Shown here: positions 39,631 through 49,466 of the stretch, in pieces
How the letters are laid out: every line of letters begins with the position of its first letter
Position numbering within the stretch: the first letter of the stretch is position 1
NCBI GenBank assembly: GCA_034430615.1
Contig: DAOUEJ010000102.1
Location: 3,570 to 67,569, forward strand
Direction of reading: 5' to 3'
DNA: 64,000 bases
Origin: Anaerolineales bacterium
GTDB lineage: Bacteria > Chloroflexota > Anaerolineae > Anaerolineales > E44-bin32
Translations under genes and position numbers: made by a program
Notes under the pieces: model-generated
The model's database searches: none
What the model was told of the DNA's origin: nothing
The model's input: only the letters and a program-made list of their open reading frames with translations

Positions 39631-40974
39631 TCAGACCGTAGCGCCGACCGTCCGGTACAGTTGTTCGCGGATGGACATCACCTCTCGCCGCAGCGAGTCG
39701 TCGGTTTCGATAAGCTCGGAGATTTTCTCCGATCCATAGAGCACGGTGGTGTGATCGCGCCCACCCAGCATATCCCCGATCTTGGGCAACGAGGTGTCTG
39801 TTTCCTGTCGCATCAGGTACATCACGATCTGGCGCGGCAAGGCAACCTCGCGCGTGCGCTCGCGACTGAGCAGCCGCTCAGTCTCAAGCCCATAACGGTG
39901 GGCGACGGCCTCGATGATCTGATCACCGTTCAGCCGACCCGTCTGGACCAGCATATCCGCCAGCGCGATCTCGACCAGCTCCGGGTTGAGTGTTTCACCA
40001 CGCAGCTCGGCATAGGCAAGCACGCGCGTCAACGCACCTTCCAGCTCTCTAATGTTGCTTTGCACGCGGCGTGCAACTTCCTCCAGGATCGAAGGTGGCA
40101 CCTGGCGACCCTGGCGTTCGGCCTTTGACCGCAGGATGGCCAGGCGGGTCTCATAATCGGCGGCCTGGATATCGGCCGTCAAGCCCCATTCAAATCGCGA
40201 GCGTAAGCGCTCTTCGAGAGTGACGAGCGCGCGCGGCGGCCGGTCCGAGGTAAGCACGATCTGCCTATCGCCACCGTGCAGGGTGTTGAAGGTGTGGAAG
40301 AATTCTTCCTGGGTGGATTCCTTACCGGCGATGAACTGGATGTCGTCGATCAGCAGGACGTCAATCTGCCGGTAGCGCTCACGGAACACAGCCGTGGTAT
40401 GGCTGAGGATGGCGTTCACGAGATCATTAGTGAACTCCTCCGAGGAGACATAGCGAACCTGCAGCCCAGTCGCCAGGCAGACGTGACCAACTGCGTGAAG
40501 CAGGTGAGTCTTCCCCAGACCCACACCGCCGTAGAGGAAGAGCGGATTGTAGGCTTTAGCCGGGCTCTCGGCGACGGCTTGCGCGGCGGCGTGAGCCAGA
40601 CGGTTGCTGGTTCCTACCACGAAGGTGTCGAAAGTATAGCGTCGGTTTAGCTGTGCCTGATGGCCGTTCGCTGCGGGTGGGTCATGTCGCATGCTGGGTC
40701 CCGCATCAGGAACTTGTTCGGCCACTGGACCGGTCCAGACTACAAAGCGGACATCAACCGTTCGCCCAACGATTCCGGTCAATATGCGCTTGACGGTCGC
40801 CAGGAGCCGGTCTTGCAACCAATCGCGGGCATATGCGTTTTTAACACCAATAACGAAAGTACCATCTTCGTAGGTAAGGTATTCTGCATCGCGGACCCAG
40901 GTGTCATAGGCTGCACGCGGCATTTCCATCTGAAGTTGTCCGAGCGCTGCCTGCCAGTTCCGCTCTGCACTCAT
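39631..40974 (-). CDS. dnaA: Chromosomal replication initiator protein DnaA
   Basis: GGAGG SD before ATG 40974. NPLFLYGGVGLGKTHLLHA, LLIDDIQF, TSDRPP, and the C-terminal DNA-binding domain GGRDHTTVLY. Confidence 0.92.
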   Translation of the reverse strand: MSAERNWQAALGQLQMEMPRAAYDTWVRDAEYLTYEDGTFVIGVKNAYARDWLQDRLLATVKRILTGIVGRTVDVRFVVWTGPVAEQVPDAGPSMRHDPPAANGHQAQLNRRYTFDTFVVGTSNRLAHAAAQAVAESPAKAYNPLFLYGGVGLGKTHLLHAVGHVCLATGLQVRYVSSEEFTNDLVNAILSHTTAVFRERYRQIDVLLIDDIQFIAGKESTQEEFFHTFNTLHGGDRQIVLTSDRPPRALVTLEERLRSRFEWGLTADIQAADYETRLAILRSKAERQGRQVPPSILEEVARRVQSNIRELEGALTRVLAYAELRGETLNPELVEIALADMLVQTGRLNGDQIIEAVAHRYGLETERLLSRERTREVALPRQIVMYLMRQETDTSLPKIGDMLGGRDHTTVLYGSEKISELIETDDSLRREVMSIREQLYRTVGATV

Positions 40975-41565
40975 ACAGTCCTCCGTACTGTTCAAGCCGC
41001 AGTCATGATCACGACTCAACCTGGAGTTTCATTTTTATTAAGCGAAGACCCGAAGGTACCTCTGTGATGAAATTTCTGTCGTCGAGGAGACGACTTTCCC
41101 AGCCACAGCGACTTTGGGGCGTGTGGGCGCTCCTCCTCGTGCATGGTGCCGCCTTCACCCATAGTGGCTGGATTGTAGCAAAACCGCCCCAAGCCTTCAA
41201 TACGATTAGCCGCCGAGTACCCTAAAACTTGGAAACTTTTAAGATAGCTAAATGTTAAAGGATGCCCAAGCCTCAATCACTTCTCGTCCGGAATGTGCGC
41301 TTCCTCACCAACCCAATCGACCGAATATGCCGTGAGGTTGCTTTACCCATACCCCATATCTTGTGGTACGGAACCCGTTATTATCTACCCACCCGCGTTA
41401 AACCTTAAAACTTAAAAAGGGAACTGGACGTCGAACAGATCGGCGACTCAGGCGCAAGCCCGATTCTGGAGGCTTCGCAAGCCCTGATTCTCGCAAAACG
41501 AGGTAAAACCATGCGTGTGCGCGTCACGCGTTGTACGCACCTGGACAAAGCACCTATCGATTAGG

Positions 41566-42945
41566 TCAGGATTTGCTGAACAACGCGTGCTGGGCTTCAC
41601 CGATCGAACGGACCTGCTCGAGTTGGATCCCGGAAACTTTTCCTGGAATACCGCGCAGGCTCCTGGGGATAAAGGCGCGCTTGAACCCGAGTTTGGCCGC
41701 TTCCATGAGGCGCGGCTCGATCTGCGGCACTGCCCTGATTTCGCCTGATAGACCAATCTCACCGATCATGACCGCTTCGGCTGGGAGAGGTTGGTCCAGC
41801 ATGGATGACACGATCGCCATCGCCATCGCAAGATCCGCAGCCGGCTCCCCGACTCGCAATCCACCGACGATGTTGATGAAGATGTCCTGGTCATCCAACC
41901 TGAGGCCAGCCCGGCGGGTGAGCACGGCTACGGTCAGCAGCAAACGATTGAAGTCGACGCCGTTCGCCGTCCGGCGCGGGTTGCCGAACCCACTACGGCT
42001 GGTCAACCCCTGCACCTCCACCAGTAACGGCCGGGTGCCTTCCATGGTCACCGCTACCGCAGAGCCAGGCGCGTTTACGACCCGCTCGGCCAGGAAAGCT
42101 TCGGAGGGATTAAGGACCTCGATCATCCCTTCCGAGCCCATCTCGAATACACCCACTTCCGTCGTTGCCCCAAACCGGTTTTTAACCGACCGAAGCAGTC
42201 GGTAGACATGATAAGGATCACCCTCCAGATAGAGCACCGTGTCAACGATATGCTCCATCACACGCGGACCCGCAATAGCGCCTTCCTTGGTGACATGTCC
42301 CACGAGGAAGACCGCAGTTCCAGTGCTCTTGGCCAGCGTCTGCAGGCGCGCCGTGCATTCACGCACCTGCGTGATCGAACCAGCACTCGAATCGAAGCTG
42401 GAGAGCTGCAGAGTCTGGATCGAATCGGCGATCACCACACCCGGCTCTACGGCTTCGATTTGCGCCAGGATGAGGTCCAGGTCAGTCTCAGCCAAGACGT
42501 AGAGGGCCTCAGGTAATTCCTGCTCCGGTTGCAGGCGCTGTGCACGCGCCTTGATTTGCGGTTCGGATTCTTCCCCCGAGACGTACAGCACCCGTACACT
42601 TGACGCCATCTGGGTCGCCATCTGTAACAGGAGCGTCGATTTGCCTATCCCGGGATCACCTCCGATCAGTATCACAGATCCTGGCGTGATGCCCCCTCCC
42701 AGCACCCGAGCAAACTCGGCGATCGGCAGGTGCAGGCGATCGGCAGCATCTCCCTGCACCAGAGATAGGGGAATAGCCCGCGCTGTCCCAGACAGACCTA
42801 CCTTTCGGGCGGCCCGGGTTGGGGGGGAGACGACTTCCTGGACCATACTGCTCCAGGCGCCGCACTGGGGGCAACGCCCGAGTGCTTTTGGAGCCGTCCT
42901 TCCACACTGTTGGCAAACGTATTGGGTTTGGACTTTAGCCACCAT
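41566..42945 (-). CDS. radA: DNA repair protein RadA/Sms
   Basis: N-terminal zinc ribbon CQQCG...CPQCGAW, GDPGIGKSTLLLQ Walker A, KNRFG motif, and a Lon-like C-terminal domain. Confidence 0.92.
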   Translation of the reverse strand: MVAKVQTQYVCQQCGRTAPKALGRCPQCGAWSSMVQEVVSPPTRAARKVGLSGTARAIPLSLVQGDAADRLHLPIAEFARVLGGGITPGSVILIGGDPGIGKSTLLLQMATQMASSVRVLYVSGEESEPQIKARAQRLQPEQELPEALYVLAETDLDLILAQIEAVEPGVVIADSIQTLQLSSFDSSAGSITQVRECTARLQTLAKSTGTAVFLVGHVTKEGAIAGPRVMEHIVDTVLYLEGDPYHVYRLLRSVKNRFGATTEVGVFEMGSEGMIEVLNPSEAFLAERVVNAPGSAVAVTMEGTRPLLVEVQGLTSRSGFGNPRRTANGVDFNRLLLTVAVLTRRAGLRLDDQDIFINIVGGLRVGEPAADLAMAMAIVSSMLDQPLPAEAVMIGEIGLSGEIRAVPQIEPRLMEAAKLGFKRAFIPRSLRGIPGKVSGIQLEQVRSIGEAQHALFSKS

Positions 42946-42983
42946 GCCTCCGGGGAGGATTATACAGCGCCAGCCGGTGAGTC

Positions 42984-43019
42984 AAAACAAAAACCCGACA
43001 CCGGCTGCGGTGTCGGGTT
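42984..43019 (-). terminator. Rho-independent terminator after clpC
   Basis: The minus strand reads AACCCGACACC-gcagcc-GGTGTCGGGTT followed by TTTGTTTTGA. Confidence 0.8.
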
Positions 43020-43039
43020 CTGCTTTGCGCTGATATAGA

Positions 43040-45532
43040 TCAGGAGGCAGGTACCGCTTCGTGCGTCTCGTCCTCGGGCTCCTGCTCGCTTAGAACCAGG
43101 GTGATCTCATCATCCACCAGATCGACCTGGACATGATCGCCAGCTTTGAATTTACCTGAGAGCAGATCGTCGGAGAGTTGATCCTCGACCTGGCTTTGGA
43201 TCACCCGGCGCAGCGGTCGTGCGCCCATATCCGGGTCATATCCGAGATCGGCCAACTTGAGTCGAGCCGCTTCGCTCGCCGTGAGGATGATCTCGTGGTC
43301 GCTGAGCCTATCAGAAACCTTGCCCAACTCCAGATCCACGATCCGGGTGATCTGTTCCTTTGTCAGCGCGTGGAAGACCATGATTGAATCGACCCTATTC
43401 AGGAACTCAGGACGGAACACCTTTTTCAGCGCCTCCGTGAGCTTCTTGTGCATTTCATCGTAGACCAGGCGCTCTTCCAGTACATCGTCTGCTGGCAGGT
43501 CAAATCCAAGCTGGGTCTGGCGCTTGATTAGATCCGCGCCCACATTGGAGGTCATTACGATGATGGCGTTCCGGAAATCAACTTTCCTGCCGCGCGCATC
43601 CGAGAGTTGGCCTTCCTCCATGATCTGAAGCAGCATATTATGCGCTTCAGGATGGGCTTTCTCGACCTCGTCGAACACAACGATCGAGTAAGGCCGGCGG
43701 CGGATGGCCTCCGTCAACTGCCCAGCATCCTCGTAGCCGACATAGCCAGGAGGGGCTCCTACCAGCCGGCTCACCGAATGGCGCTCCATCAACTCCGACA
43801 TGTCGATCTGGATCAAGGCATCCTCTGACCCGAACATGAACTCAGCCAGTGCCTTGGTGAGCTCGGTTTTTCCAACGCCGGTCGGCCCCAGAAATATAAA
43901 TGAACCAATCGGGCGCTTTGGATCCTTCAGCCCTGCCCGCGACCTGCGCACAGCCTTGGAGATGGCATTGATCGCTTCATCCTGTCCGATGATATGTTCG
44001 TGCAGCGCCTCTTCCATCTGCAGCAAACGCGTGGATTCGGCTTCGGCAATCTGCATCACCGGTACCCCGGTCCACATCGAGACTACCTCGGCGATATCGT
44101 GCTCGGTTACGCGGGGACTGCTCTCGCTTCGATCCCACGCCCCGCGCAGGAGTTCGAGTTGCTCTTCCAATTGCGCTTCATGCTGAACAAGCTCCTGGGC
44201 ATCATCGTAACGCGACTCGTCCAGGGCAAGAGCATGTGCTTCGCGGGTCTTACGCAGCTGGCCGATAATTTCACGTAATGAAACGGCTTCCGGACTCTTA
44301 TACATCCGGACCCGCGAAGCTGATTCATCGATGAGATCGATCGCCTTGTCAGGCAGGAATCGATCGGTGACATAACGAGCAGAGAGGTAGGCAGCCGACT
44401 CGAGAGCTTCATCCGTGATGTGCAGCTTGTGGTGCTCTTCGTACGGGCGGCGCACCCCGCGCAGGATATCGATCGTCTCTTCGATCGAAGGTTCTTCAAC
44501 CATCACCGGTTGGAAGCGCCGCTCGAGGGCAGCATCATTTTCAATATGTTTGCGGTACTCATCCAGGGTTGTAGCGCCGATCACCTGCAGTTCACCCCTG
44601 GAGAGGGCAGGCTTGAGGATGTTGGCGGCGTCGACCGAAGATCCAGCCGAGCCAGCTCCAACGAGCATGTGAACTTCGTCGATGAAAAGAATTGCCTCCG
44701 ACGACTTGAGCTCGTCAATGACCCGCTTCAAGCGCTCTTCGAACTGGCCACGATACATCGTTCCGGCGACCAGTGAGCCGACATCAAGCTGCAGGACCCG
44801 TTTACCGATCAACGGACCTGGTGTTTCCCCGGCGATAATCCGCTGTGCGAGGCCCTCGACGATAGCTGTCTTGCCAACGCCTGGCTCCCCGATCAGTGCC
44901 GGGTTGTTTTTTGTTCGCCGGGCGAGGATCTGGATCACGCGCTCGATTTCCATCTCACGCCCGATCACTGGATCTAATTTGTTTTCTTCAGCCAATGCCG
45001 TCAAATCGGTCGCCAGCTGGTCAACCAGTGGTGTTTTGGGCTGGTCTTTCCGCTGGCTTGTGCTGGATTTCTGAGCCATCCGCCGCGTGGGGCTCTCTTG
45101 CAAAACCCGGCGGGTCTGACGGCGGACTTGTTCGGGTGTGATCCCGAGGCGGCGCAGAACATCAACGCCGACCCCTTCGTTCTGTCGAACGAGCCCCAAC
45201 AACAGGTGCTCGGTGCCTATGTAGTGATTCCCCAACTGGCGCGCTTCTTCGATCGCCAACTGGAGCACCTGCTCAGTGGCCGGGGCAAGTTCAATGCGCC
45301 CCCCGGTGTGCCTCCCGACCCCCGTTAGGCGCTCAACCATCTCTTTCACCCGGGCTGGATCGAGGGCGAGCTCGCGCAGGACACGCCCGGCGACACCCGC
45401 CTCTTCACGAACTAACCCAAGCAGGAGGTGTTCTGTACCAATGTAATTGTGATGCAACCGCTCCGCCTCTTCGTGTGCAAGACTTAGCACACGGCGAGCA
45501 CGCTGCGTAAAGCGTTCCATCTTATCGGCCAC
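43040..45532 (-). CDS. clpC: ATP-dependent Clp protease ATP-binding subunit ClpC
   Basis: Double Clp_N repeats ([10 protein letters not shown] twice), two AAA+ modules (GEPGVGKTA and GPTGVGKTE), and a short UVR-like middle region. GTG start with GGAGG SD. Confidence 0.9.
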
Positions 45533-45635
45533 CGCTGATCCTCCACACCATTTCGCCTAAATCCTCCTGATTGAATCCTATTCTACCAAATAAACTTCAA
45601 CCACCTCGGAAAGTAGGATTTAATTCCCCCGTTGG

Positions 45636-45673
45636 CAAAATCAAAATCCGGGCGCACACTGGGTACGCCCGGA
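45636..45673 (-). terminator. Rho-independent terminator after rpsA
   Basis: The minus strand reads TCCGGGCG-tacccagtgtg-CGCCCGGA followed by TTTTGATTTTG. Confidence 0.75.
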
Positions 45674-45726
45674 TGATTTCTCTCACGCTGACCTGCGGTG
45701 ATCCCCCAGGTTAGTTGCGAGGCATT

Positions 45727-47265
45727 CTACTCCTCGTCCGCATTAACCTCTTCGATCATTTCTTCGGGCTCGGAGTCGACCTCGATTTCCAGCTCCGCTT
45801 CGGCCTCTGGAAGCTCTGCGTCCTGGGTATCATCGACGGCCATTTCGACCTCGATCTCTTCCTCTTCCAGGTCTGGCGCGACCGCTTCGTCGGTTGATTC
45901 CAGTTCAGCTTCAACCTGTGCCGATGCCTCTTCTGACTCAGCAACATCCTCGGCCTCAGCTACCGGCGGCAGATCCGGGATATCGCCTTCCAGATCGGCA
46001 TCGAAATCCTCGACCGGGACCGGTGGCTCGGGCTGGCTCTCTTGCTCCGCGCCGGCTTCCATGCCCTGCATGGCTGTCTGCCAATCAACATCGGTAAACT
46101 CGGCCGAATCGACCTGTTTCAGGCTCAACCCGAGCCGGCGGCGTTCGCGATCGATCTTGATCAAGCGCAAGGTGAGCGTTTGATCCTCGCTGACGACCTC
46201 ACGCGGATGCTCGATCCGTTGATCGGAAAGCTCGGAAATATGGATCAGGCCTTCGATCTCGTAGTCTTCGATATCCTTGATCGTGGCGAAGGCACCGAAC
46301 TTTGTAAGTTTGGTAATCGTGCCTTCAATTAATTGCCCTTCCTGGAAGGAATCCAGTATCTCATCCCAGGGGTTCGACTCGAGCTCGCGCAGGGAAAGGC
46401 TGATGCGCTTCTGTTCTGGATCCACGCTGAGCACTTTCACATCGATCTCCTGACCCACTTTGAGGACATCCTTCGGGTGGGCGACCCGCTTCCAGGAGAG
46501 TTCAGAAATGTGTACCAGGCCGTCGGCGCCGCCGATGTCGACGAAAGCACCGAAATCGGCCAGGCTGATCACCGTGCCTGTCCGTGTTTCACCGGGTTTG
46601 AGCTCCGAAATTAGACGTTCCTTCAGCGCGTCACGCGATTCGCGCGCGGCAGCCCGTTCGGAAAGGATCAAACGGTTGCGCCGCCGGTCGACTTCGATCA
46701 CCTTGGCGATGATTGGCTCACCGGCCATCTTGCCCCAACGCTGGTCCGGGGTTTCGCCTTCCGCCCTTCGGCGGCGGGCGAGGCTGACCTGTGAGGCGGG
46801 GATAAACCCGCGCAAATGACCAAACTTGACGATCAAGCCGCCCTTGTTATAGCCCGAGATAAGGCCTTCGTAGGGCTCGCTCGATTCGAGCAGTTCTTCG
46901 GCTTCCTGCCATTCGTTCTCTTCTTCTGCGCGCGAAATGGAGAGCAGGAGCGTGCCATCACGGTCGGCCGAGCGAATAACATAGACGTTAATCTCGGAGC
47001 CCACCACGAGTTCTGCTTTCTGCTCATCGGTGAGTTGCTCGAGTTCGCGGCTGGAAATCAGCCCTTCTGATTTGGCGCCGATATCTACCAGCACGTCACT
47101 CTCTGTCACGCGTGCGATGGTGCCGGTGCGAATTTCTCCCCGGCGTGGTGTTTCTAAATCGTAGGCCTCTGCTTCAAGCAGGGCGTCCATCGGGTGTTCT
47201 TCAGGCTCGACGTTTCCTACGCCATGCATGATTTCTTCCCCGATGAGCTCGTCGTTTCGGTCCAT
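45727..47265 (-). CDS. rpsA: 30S ribosomal protein S1 with long acidic C-terminal tail
   Basis: Repeated S1 domains (GxxxxGxVxxxxxxGxFVDIG patterns). The last roughly 110 aa are extremely Glu/Asp-rich. Confidence 0.88.
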   Translation of the reverse strand: MDRNDELIGEEIMHGVGNVEPEEHPMDALLEAEAYDLETPRRGEIRTGTIARVTESDVLVDIGAKSEGLISSRELEQLTDEQKAELVVGSEINVYVIRSADRDGTLLLSISRAEEENEWQEAEELLESSEPYEGLISGYNKGGLIVKFGHLRGFIPASQVSLARRRRAEGETPDQRWGKMAGEPIIAKVIEVDRRRNRLILSERAAARESRDALKERLISELKPGETRTGTVISLADFGAFVDIGGADGLVHISELSWKRVAHPKDVLKVGQEIDVKVLSVDPEQKRISLSLRELESNPWDEILDSFQEGQLIEGTITKLTKFGAFATIKDIEDYEIEGLIHISELSDQRIEHPREVVSEDQTLTLRLIKIDRERRRLGLSLKQVDSAEFTDVDWQTAMQGMEAGAEQESQPEPPVPVEDFDADLEGDIPDLPPVAEAEDVAESEEASAQVEAELESTDEAVAPDLEEEEIEVEMAVDDTQDAELPEAEAELEIEVDSEPEEMIEEVNADEE

Positions 47266-47388: not shown

Positions 47389-48501
47389 TTGGCCACTGTT
47401 TACCCCTTCAGTGCTATCGTTGGCCAGGACCGGATGCGGCGTGCGTTGATACTGAACGCCGTCAACCCGCGCATCGGCGGGGTCCTCATTCGCGGCGAAC
47501 GCGGAACCGCCAAATCGACCGCCGCGCGCGGCCTGGCCGCCTTGCTTCCGGAAGTCGAGGTCGTAGCCGACTGCCGTTTCGGGTGCGACCCAGCGAAGCC
47601 CACCCAATACTGCACCGAATGCAAGGAGCGCATCGAGCGGGGTGAAACCCTTCCGGTGGAAATCCGCACAACTTCATTTGTGGACCTACCGGTATCGGCC
47701 ACTGAAGATCGCGTCGTCGGTACGCTGGATATCGAACGCGCCATCAAAGAAGGCGAGCGTCATTTCGAGCCCGGCGTTCTCGCTGCAGCGAACCGCGGTT
47801 TGTTATACATCGACGAAGTCAATCTGTTAGATGACCACGTCGTTGACCTACTCCTCGATTCGGCTGCGCTTGGAATGAACATCGTTGAACGGGAAGGGAT
47901 TTCCTTCAGCCATCCTTCTCGCTACATCCTTGTGGGCACAATGAACCCCGAGGAAGGCGATTTGCGCCCACAGCTCCTGGATCGTTTTGCGCTTTCGGTC
48001 GAGATCCACGGCCTGCATCAGGCGCAGGACCGGGTCGCTATTATGGAGCGCAACCTGGCCTTCGAAGCGGATCCTGTTGCCTTCCGAGAACAATGGCTCG
48101 AGCACGAACTTTCGCTTTCGAATGAAATCGAAGCTGCCCGGGAGATACTCGGGGGTGTCCGCTACAGCAAGCAGGATCTCCTCTCCATTGCTGCACTGAC
48201 CTCCTCTATGCACGTGGACGGCCACCGGGCGGACCTGGTGATCCTCAAAGCTGCCCGAGCGCACGCTGCCTTTGAAGGGCGGGACAGTATCAGCCAGCGT
48301 GATATCGCTCTCGCCGCAGAGCTGGCACTCCCGCATCGCATCCGGCGTGGCCCATTCCAGCAGGTCGAGGTGCATATCGATGACCTGCAGTCCCGCATCG
48401 AACAATTCCAATCCGACTTCGAAGGGGGCGAGCAGCTAAGCGAACCCGACTCCGGCGAAGAGGATCCCCAGGCTAAAAAAAAAGGCCCCAAACCCGCCTA
48501 G
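47389..48501 (+). CDS. ChlI/BchI-like AAA+ chelatase ATPase subunit
   Basis: YPFSAIVGQDRMRRALILNAVNPRIGGVLIRGERGTAKST, LLYIDEVNLL and GTMNPEEGDLRPQLLDRF motifs. TTG start with GGAG SD. Confidence 0.85.
   Translation: MATVYPFSAIVGQDRMRRALILNAVNPRIGGVLIRGERGTAKSTAARGLAALLPEVEVVADCRFGCDPAKPTQYCTECKERIERGETLPVEIRTTSFVDLPVSATEDRVVGTLDIERAIKEGERHFEPGVLAAANRGLLYIDEVNLLDDHVVDLLLDSAALGMNIVEREGISFSHPSRYILVGTMNPEEGDLRPQLLDRFALSVEIHGLHQAQDRVAIMERNLAFEADPVAFREQWLEHELSLSNEIEAAREILGGVRYSKQDLLSIAALTSSMHVDGHRADLVILKAARAHAAFEGRDSISQRDIALAAELALPHRIRRGPFQQVEVHIDDLQSRIEQFQSDFEGGEQLSEPDSGEEDPQAKKKGPKPA
48475..48483 (+). other. A9 homopolymer at the 3' end of the ChlI-like ORF; candidate -1 frameshift or transcriptional slippage site
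   Basis: GCT AAA AAA AAA GGC. It is the longest homopolymer I noticed in this high-GC window. The -1 frame opens exactly here (its last stop TAA is 48474-48476) and runs into the VWA ORF. Confidence 0.35.
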
Positions 48502-48572
48502 CGCAGGATGAAAGCGAAGAAGGCGAAGAACGCGGCATTGTCGAGCCGACCCGGCAGGCCGTCAACGAATCC

Positions 48573-49466
48573 TTGAACGCCCGTTGGTGGGAGGGCGGAG
48601 ACAAGGTCCGGGTCGGGAAATCCTTTGTCCCCAGGCGCATCGAAGGCCAGATCGATCGCCTCACCCGGCGCCAGTCCGGCCGGCGCACCCGCACCCGCTC
48701 AGACCAGAAGCGTGGCCGTTACATCCAGGCCCGGCCTGCCTACGAACGAACGAGTGATATCGCCTTCGATGCAACCATCCGCGCTGCTGCCCCGCACCAG
48801 CGCGAGCGCGAGGAGCAGCGCAAGCGGGTTTCGTTTGCCATTTTACCAACCGACCTGCAGCGCAAGGTCCGGGTTCGCAAGGCAGCCAACCTGGTGCTGT
48901 TTGTCGTCGACGCCTCCTGGTCCATGGCTGTCGCTGAACGCATGTCGGCGACCAAAGGCGCGATTCTCTCCTTGCTCACCGATGCCTACCAGCGCCGAGA
49001 TCGGGTGGGTTTAATCGTATTCCAGAAAGATCGTGCTATTACGATCCTGCCTCCGACGAACTCAGTTCAACTTGCTCAACGCGCTCTTGTGGACATCCCG
49101 GTAGGCGGGAAGACCCCGCTTTCGGCTGGGTTGAGCCTGGCCTATGAAATCTTCCGTAAGGAACGGTTGATCCATCCCGACGTCCTGCCGCTGATGATCC
49201 TTCTCACCGATGGCGCCGGGAATGTTGCCATGGGAGCCCAACCCCCACAGGAAGAAGCTCATCGCATCGCCGACCAGATCCGCGAGGCGAAGATCCGCGC
49301 GGTCGTGATCAACATGGAGCACGCCGCCTTCGATCAGGGCCTGGCGCAGAATCTGGCTGACCGCCTGGGTGGGGCCTGCTATACCCTGCAAGAACTGCGT
49401 GCCGAACATCTCTATCAGGCCGTTCGGCAGGAACTCGATGAGGGTCTGGCAAACACTTCGTCGTGA
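48573..49466 (+). CDS. VWA-domain protein equivalent to the C-terminal half of ChlD/BchD
   Basis: GRRTRTRSDQKRGRYIQARP followed by the MIDAS-type VFVVDASWSMA...GGKTPL...LLTDGAGN. The only in-frame start is TTG 48573, which has no SD. The frame is open upstream to 48477. Confidence 0.78.
   Translation: MNARWWEGGDKVRVGKSFVPRRIEGQIDRLTRRQSGRRTRTRSDQKRGRYIQARPAYERTSDIAFDATIRAAAPHQREREEQRKRVSFAILPTDLQRKVRVRKAANLVLFVVDASWSMAVAERMSATKGAILSLLTDAYQRRDRVGLIVFQKDRAITILPPTNSVQLAQRALVDIPVGGKTPLSAGLSLAYEIFRKERLIHPDVLPLMILLTDGAGNVAMGAQPPQEEAHRIADQIREAKIRAVVINMEHAAFDQGLAQNLADRLGGACYTLQELRAEHLYQAVRQELDEGLANTSS

Follow-up and report, generated by a model that had tools for sequence, protein, structure and literature searches.

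In a 64,000-nucleotide stretch of an Anaerolineales bacterium genome (assembly GCA_034430615.1, contig DAOUEJ010000102.1, positions 3,570 to 67,569; the window, in what follows), a gene for a ChlI-like AAA+ ATPase carries near its end a run of nine adenines (A9, 48475-48483, plus strand), and the -1 frame is open from this run into a VWA domain. Programmed two-product decoding at the A9 run, whichever machine slips, is the preferred explanation, with a probability of about 0.85. The locus would be one gene, fs-chlD, decoded in two ways. Standard decoding would give a 370-amino-acid (aa) ChlI-like AAA+ ATPase that stops five codons past the three lysines (KKK) encoded by the run. In a fraction of events reading would move to the -1 frame at the run, and the shifted product would be a 692-aa ChlD-like protein consisting of the same AAA+ module, an acidic linker and a VWA domain with its metal ion-dependent adhesion site (MIDAS). 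We infer that the shift occurs in vivo from the comparative evidence presented here and from published reporter assays on homologous cassettes.

Programmed frameshifting of this gene family is already published, Anaerolineae included: the finding is real, not new, and it leaves current understanding unchanged because the phenomenon is on record. Bacteria have few conserved chromosomal recoding sites, and the locus nevertheless adds a well-supported example to one of them. Its annotation should be that of one recoded gene giving two products, neither "ChlI" plus "VWA-domain protein" nor a pseudogene. The remaining interest lies in the level at which slippage takes place, in the interleaving of split and fused configurations among relatives, and in the role of an I/D-type AAA+/VWA motor that has no large chelatase subunit nearby.

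The A9 run and its two predicted products

The run is read in the zero frame as three lysine codons in the context CAG GCT AAA AAA AAA GGC CCC AAA CCC GCC TAG, and the short product ends with DPQAKKKGPKPA. Its open reading frame (ORF) has a TTG start with a Shine-Dalgarno (SD) sequence, AGGAG, upstream. A9 is the sole homopolymer of at least eight bases within the window, whose GC content is 57.7%; the chance expectation for A-runs of nine or more is about 0.04. Both frames that do not lead into the VWA domain are closed shortly after the run, the zero frame at 15 nucleotides (nt) and the +1 frame at 25 nt (Table 1). The -1 frame reads KKRPQTRLAQDESEEGEERGIVEPTRQAVNES-L(TTG 48573)-NARWWEGG past the run and remains open until the TGA at 49464-49466. 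Access to this ORF is solely via a shift at the run.

Re-reading of A48483 in a -1 shift, or the addition of one A, would yield a protein in which 365 zero-frame residues are followed by 327 residues of the -1 frame, joined as ...DPQAKKK-RPQTRLAQ... and identifiable by the junction peptide DPQAKKKRPQTRLAQ. The TTG at 48573 is the only ATG, GTG or TTG codon in the -1 frame ahead of the WWEGG motif. It has no SD sequence and lies downstream of conserved coding residues; mechanical ORF calling from it yields a 297-aa ORF, and to judge from the sequence this codon is probably just Leu396 of the fusion.

A preliminary description, drawn from the letters of the window, had already reported the A9 run, the -1-frame stop TAA adjoining it and the open -1 frame, all of which are exact. 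It had also called the run the longest homopolymer noticed in DNA of roughly 60% GC and the TTG the only start in frame, without an SD sequence, as is borne out for the stretch ahead of WWEGG. Its proposal that a -1 slip or an extra A fuses the ChlI-like AAA+ part to linker plus VWA, giving a ChlD-sized product of about 690 aa, agrees with the calculated length and is supported by the end-to-end family match described next, as well as by the uninterrupted orthologues found among relatives.

The fusion matches the NCBIfam model TIGR02442, "putative cobaltochelatase", with 779.8 bits (cut-off 779.45), residues 5-667 covering positions 1-640 of the 641 in the model. It scores below the equivalog cut-offs of BchD-ChlD (TIGR02031; 441.8 versus 499.55 bits) and of BchI-ChlI (413.6 versus 466.95 bits). 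The architecture is thus common to the fusion and BchD/ChlD; equivalog membership is not supported. By Pfam, the N half contains AAA_lid_2, Mg_chelatase and AAA_5 domains; the C half contains VWA and VWA_2. Among structures in the PDB, the N half (residues 3-328) matches ChlI (8osf, 6l8d) and BchI (1g8p) with E values of 1e-93 to 1e-100, and the C half (residues 501-642) matches the integrin-I domain of BchD (2x31_A, E 1.4e-19). The Walker B sequence LLYIDEV (residues 138-144) is present and invariant among relatives, as are the Walker A and MIDAS motifs.

Two local peculiarities of the AAA+ module were observed. The P-loop has an alanine at position 6, a variant with few if any exceptions in the clade; the P-loop of BchI is GDRGTGKST, with glycine in place of that alanine. 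In addition, a CxxxC...CxxC sequence at 47572-47622 (CRFGCDPAKPTQYCTEC) is inserted in the module. Its cysteines C62, C66, C75 and C78 are nearly invariant, and the insert may form a small metal-binding knuckle.

Table 1. Features of the fs-chlD locus and genes upstream of it, in window coordinates
Feature	Position	Strand	Remarks
ChlI-like AAA+ ATPase, short product, 370 aa	47389-48501	+	zero-frame ORF
Walker A / P-loop GERGTAKST	47494-47520	+	columns invariant in alignment of relatives
TAA, last -1-frame stop	48474-48476	+	overlaps first two A's of A9
A9 slippery run	48475-48483	+	holds phased A_AAA_AAA heptamer 48477-48483, then G
-1-frame ORF, 329 codons	48477-49466	+	acidic linker, EPxxQ, WWEGG and AAPxQ motifs, VWA/integrin-I domain
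TAG, zero-frame stop	48499-48501	+	15 nt past run; 5-codon tail
TGA, first +1-frame stop	48509-48511	+	25 nt past run
TTG, mechanical ORF start of VWA half	48573-48575	+	without SD; not conserved in relatives
MIDAS DxSxS (DASWS) of VWA domain	48909-48923	+	intact, invariant among relatives
dnaA	39631-41019	-	
radA	41566-42945	-	
clpC	43040-45532	-	
rpsA	45727-47265	-	

Conservation of the run and of the frame layout

At the protein level, the best 120 database relatives are all single uninterrupted proteins, mostly of 665-700 aa (range 591-736) and with 62-78% identity; the named members belong to Anaerolineales, Anaerolineae or Chloroflexota. This list was ranked by full-length score, so split genes cannot show in it. 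Among its members are uninterrupted orthologues 680-692 aa long, with identities of 63-78%. The linker is highly variable in the alignment, yet KKK occupies the junction position in nearly every sequence. Moreover, two positions located past the run and ahead of TTG 48573, P387 and Q390 (EPxxQ), hardly vary, indicating that the -1 frame upstream of this TTG is coding.

At the DNA level, a scan of GTDB genomes gave 80 loci. Of these, 77 were classified along with the window according to the relative frames of their AAA+ and VWA parts. The VWA frame lies at -1 in 31 loci, the window included (A9 in 15, A10 in 12, A7 in 4), and at +1 in none. Another 13 are uninterrupted and bear the run (A9 in 10, A10 in 1, A7 in 2). 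The 34 that are uninterrupted and have no run are distant relatives (Dehalococcoidia, Dormibacteria, archaea) with 43-57% identity. Three further syntenic orthologues bring the uninterrupted run-bearing loci to 16 and the run-bearing loci to 47; not one of these 47 Anaerolineae-type loci, with A7-A10 at the linker position, is split at +1. Relatives of the window include metagenome-assembled genomes of Longilinea, Levilinea and Anaerolinea.

The frames around the run follow a regular layout. Where the VWA frame is at -1, a zero-frame stop is located 1-15 nt past the run, and the -1 frame is free of stops for 940-998 nt. Where a run-bearing gene is uninterrupted, it is the zero frame that continues without a stop, in most cases for 920-980 nt; nearly all such genes with A9 or A10 have both other frames shut within about 50 nt. 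The three syntenic uninterrupted orthologues (76-77% identity), whose shared gene order with the window (ClpC, S1, chlD, RNase H-like) identifies the loci as orthologous, carry A9, in phase 0; there the -1 frame is shut after 8-20 nt and the +1 frame after 13-16 nt. The in-frame orthologue P0004 occurs on five contigs, and its junction is identical in all three that were retrieved, which come from separate samples. Among split loci, two independent assemblies that are the closest relatives of the window (L017 and L019) have the same A9, phase and 5-codon tail; in a third (L025) the run and its phase agree with these, and the tail has 4 codons.

The nucleotide sequence of the run is itself constrained. 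Lysine codons outside the run in these genes are AAA in 557 cases versus AAG in 535 (51% AAA), and the run is pure A in 47/47 run-bearing loci. Both non-VWA frames are closed at a median of 22 nt, versus a median of 130 nt under a within-gene null, with p<=0.05 in 30 of the 47 loci. The comparative data show selection on the run, not error or decay.

In a rough neighbour-joining tree an uninterrupted A9 clade is basal; the next clade consists mostly of -1 loci, among which four uninterrupted ones are nested. The uninterrupted loci L081, L083-L086 and L001-L011 keep A9 and nearby stops in the other frames, and on this tree they are interleaved with -1-split orthologues. Such a distribution implies that the product read in the zero frame would have switched repeatedly. 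In E. coli, cassettes from published Mg-chelatase frameshift genes gave 63% shifted product with A11, 40% with A9 and 10% with A7 (PMC3711429). A shifted fraction near one half, a level that the A9 cassette approaches in E. coli, would provide similar subunit ratios from either configuration, and repeated flips between split and uninterrupted genes could be explained in this way.

The preliminary description had compared the locus with dnaX, in which two products arise from one locus, and had pointed out that orthologues lacking the run and having an SD-preceded start for the VWA gene would speak against the idea. In the run-bearing loci the A-run is kept, and among the -1 loci there is no conserved start for the VWA half. 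The A-run and the open -1 frame are conserved in the 31 loci at -1, and relatives with a fused chlD-like gene were found in the 16 uninterrupted run-bearing loci. The dnaX-like logic is supported by the conservation of run and frame layout in independent assemblies, by the constraint on the run and by the publication of the same mechanism with reporter assays.

Alternative explanations and the level of slippage

Public annotation usually presents such loci as two genes, and the 297-aa ORF obtained by mechanical calling would fit an ordinary pair of adjacent genes, in which the VWA gene is initiated separately at TTG 48573, by reinitiation or translational coupling, and the A-run merely encodes lysine. 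This arrangement is hardly credible. Besides the lack of an SD sequence at the TTG, in L017, the closest relative, SLNARWWEGGD recurs without a start codon; 18 of the 27 informative -1 loci have no ATG, GTG or TTG between the last -1-frame stop and WWEGG, and an SD-like motif is found in one locus only. The conserved EPxxQ residues that the -1 frame encodes upstream of the TTG, the synonymous-site constraint on the run and the existence of uninterrupted orthologues also argue against it. Independent initiation of the VWA half was rejected, there being no conserved start codon among the -1 loci. It is likewise very unlikely that chlD is truly or ancestrally uninterrupted here, the split being due to missequencing or misassembly of the homopolymer or to a recent frameshift that inactivated the gene and made it a pseudogene. 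Homopolymers are indeed prone to errors and mutations, and uninterrupted orthologues exist at 76-78% identity. However, the run, its phase and the short tail recur in independent assemblies, 31 loci lie at -1 versus 0 at +1, the VWA half is conserved as well as the AAA+ half (66-83% versus 72-82%) and its MIDAS motif is intact. Moreover, the frame difference is not a run-length miscall, because uninterrupted relatives also have A9. On these comparative grounds neither an assembly error nor a pseudogene seems tenable.

Variation of the run in the DNA itself must also be weighed. Slipped-strand mispairing during replication could toggle the run length, with cells switching between a fused and a split gene, and both the interleaving of the two configurations on the tree of close relatives and the occurrence of A9 or A10 among them are consistent with such phase variation. 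Against it, long runs are limited to 9-10 nt, no +1 configuration occurs, and the P0004 junction does not vary between the three contigs from separate samples. In-frame and -1 relatives can, furthermore, both be A9, which places the frame difference outside the run. Phase variation is accordingly given very little probability.

Programmed decoding at the A9 run can be brought about by RNA polymerase, which would insert an extra A in the mRNA, or by the ribosome, through -1 tandem slippage. The first appears slightly favoured. Transcriptional slippage is the more likely in the window because the run is of 9-10 nt, a length matching that of the RNA-polymerase hybrid, no stimulator accompanies it and stops are placed in both non-productive frames, as in the design of Thermus dnaX; two hallmarks of that type, an A/T run of about 9 nt and close stops in the two non-productive frames, are present in the window. 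No significant downstream stimulatory structure was found in the window (z +0.43 for 62 nt, -0.52 for 117 nt), and none in the other A9/A10 loci, where z is near 0. Both routes may contribute in the window, and the protein is identical either way.

The alternative within the same two-product reading is purely ribosomal -1 programmed ribosomal frameshifting (PRF), in which tRNA-Lys pairs would slip in tandem on A_AAA_AAA_G (48477-48484) of a homogeneous A9 mRNA. This has a substantial minority share of the probability. The heptamer is in the correct phase, an SD-like GAGGA (48460-48464) lies 12 nt upstream of it, and the literature refers to the A_AAA_AAR site of this family as a ribosomal shift site or as programmed ribosomal frameshifting (PMC5009743, PMC9227772, PMC3711429). 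Relatives with A7 also resemble classical PRF sites. Their run is always in phase 2, which creates an exact A_AAA_AAA_G heptamer, and they do not close both alternative frames, the +1 frame not being shut. In the A7 sub-lineage formed by L042, L063, L069 and L030, a strong stem-loop is located 1-7 nt past the run; significant z values are confined to A7 relatives (-3.56 in L042, -3.18 in L063). By sequence, this sub-lineage seems to have gone over to ribosomal -1 PRF of the classical type within one gene family. For the window and the other A9/A10 loci, however, a purely ribosomal mechanism has to contend with the absence of a downstream stimulatory structure, with selection that keeps the run at 9-10 nt and not 7, and with closure of the +1 frame soon past the run, a trait for which pure -1 PRF has no need and which corresponds to the transcriptional-slippage pattern of Thermus dnaX. 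The SD-like motif is not conserved either: GAGGA was considered as a conserved upstream stimulator and rejected, relatives often being without any such motif. As for known RNA elements, Rfam gave a sub-threshold match only, to ctRNA_p42d (48472-48499, minus strand, over the T-run; 18.8 bits versus a gathering score of 50, E 0.27), which was deemed a chance match.

Several considerations temper confidence in programmed slippage at A9 and in the choice of its mechanism. The fusion clears the TIGR02442 cut-off by 0.35 bits only, and the composition of the acidic linker could add to the nearby stops in the alternative frames. A9 contains a phased A_AAA_AAA heptamer in any register, so phase cannot tell the mechanisms apart. 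The published reporter assays were carried out in E. coli with cassettes from other genera and do not separate slippage by RNA polymerase from slippage by the ribosome (PMC3711429). Finally, the function of the gene is uncertain, with no cobN or chlH in the 64-kb window.

Genomic context and comparison with known systems

The neighbours of the chlD-like gene are of the housekeeping kind and encode DnaA, RadA, ClpC, ribosomal protein S1, an RNase H-like protein, a hybrid histidine kinase, a response regulator and a DnaJ-like protein, and the gene order around it is conserved in close relatives. Just upstream, dnaA, radA, clpC and rpsA stand in a row on the minus strand (39631-47265), and a chromosomal origin may be located near this row.

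As to a large chelatase subunit, the 64-kb window has no ORF of at least 1000 aa and no CobN-Mg_chel domain among the neighbours that would correspond to CobN or ChlH, and no second chlI copy. The flanks of the A-run-clade loci have no cobN. In the distant run-less relatives, a CobN-Mg_chel gene of about 1270-1300 aa directly adjoins the chlD-like gene; such cobN-linked in-frame loci include L029, L032, L060, L016, L070 and others (Dehalococcoidia, a Methanoregulaceae archaeon, Desulfotalea). L060 has an unrelated A7, and the other distant cobN-linked loci have no junction run. The nearby CobN that characterises an aerobic-type cobaltochelatase is thus absent from the window, and a cobaltochelatase role is not supported by the context. 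Because there is no CobN or ChlH in the window, the "cobaltochelatase" label is to be taken as a family name, not as a demonstrated function.

It is tempting, if rather speculative, to combine these elements. The A9/A10 run of Anaerolineae could be a configuration-agnostic transcriptional-slippage module supplying approximately balanced I-like and D-like subunits, for which a sister lineage would have substituted A7 plus a stem-loop and hence ribosomal PRF. The AAA+/VWA complex might then work without CobN or ChlH in a conserved clpC-rpsA neighbourhood, and not for metal insertion into tetrapyrroles. This wider scenario is considerably less probable than two-product decoding as such.

The protein shares its domain architecture with canonical ChlI/ChlD (BchI/BchD) and with CobN-ChlI-ChlD type cobaltochelatase: an AAA+ module including AAA_lid_2, then an acidic linker, then a VWA domain that bears the MIDAS motif DxSxS. 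It differs from the canonical systems in that the window has one gene where these have two, in the scores below the equivalog cut-offs and in the absence of a ChlH/CobN partner within the window.

The closest parallel is with the published fs-chlD genes. A cluster of frameshifted (-1) Mg-chelatase genes was described by Antonov et al. (2013, Nucleic Acids Research, PMC3711429) in Pseudomonas, Burkholderia, Delftia, Herpetosiphon (Chloroflexi), Methanocaldococcus and Methanococcus, and fused Mg-chelatase homologues were noted in other species (PMC3711429). The review of Atkins et al. (2016) lists a conserved A_AAA_AAR shift site in the Mg-chelatase gene (PMC5009743). According to Kuznetsov et al. 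(2022), fs-chlD genes make the small as well as the medium subunit (PMC9227772). These authors report fs-chlD in four genera of Anaerolineae (Anaerolinea, Ornatilinea, Longilinea and Levilinea) and in Brevefilum, and state that such organisms are without the large subunit and the pathways, the function being unknown (PMC9227772).

The gene in the window has the attributes of this group: a ChlI-like AAA+ ORF followed by an overlapping -1 VWA ORF, a fusion that corresponds to a full-length medium-subunit-like protein, and an A-rich slippery site of the poly-A/A_AAA_AAR type at the overlap, conserved as A7-A10 in the 47 loci, from which both subunits would derive. Nothing essential sets it apart. 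The window has no downstream stimulatory RNA structure, a component that is usual and not obligatory and that the published signals "usually" include. Frameshifting in genes of the chlD type is reportedly also described by Antonov (2020, Molecular Biology and Evolution, doi 10.1093/molbev/msaa081). The absence of cobN near the window gene is a point that Kuznetsov et al. also make for Anaerolineae (PMC9227772).

A second parallel is with dnaX, an unrelated gene encoding part of a different complex. Like dnaX tau/gamma, the locus would yield two products with a common N-terminal AAA+ module from one gene, by a slip on lysine codons in an A-run. In E. coli, dnaX relies on -1 PRF at A_AAA_AAG with SD-like and stem-loop stimulators, which are absent in the window. 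In Thermus thermophilus the slip is transcriptional, on an A/T run of 9 nt, and leads to products in a ratio of about 1:1 (PMC5009743), and the A9/A10 chlD loci resemble this system in the 9-nt run, the close stops in both non-zero frames and the lack of a stimulator. The long product is encoded in the zero frame in both E. coli and Thermus dnaX, whereas in the window the zero frame encodes the short one. Such an inversion is known from dnaX as well, where "reversed" configurations occur in which the long product needs the shift (PMC5009743).

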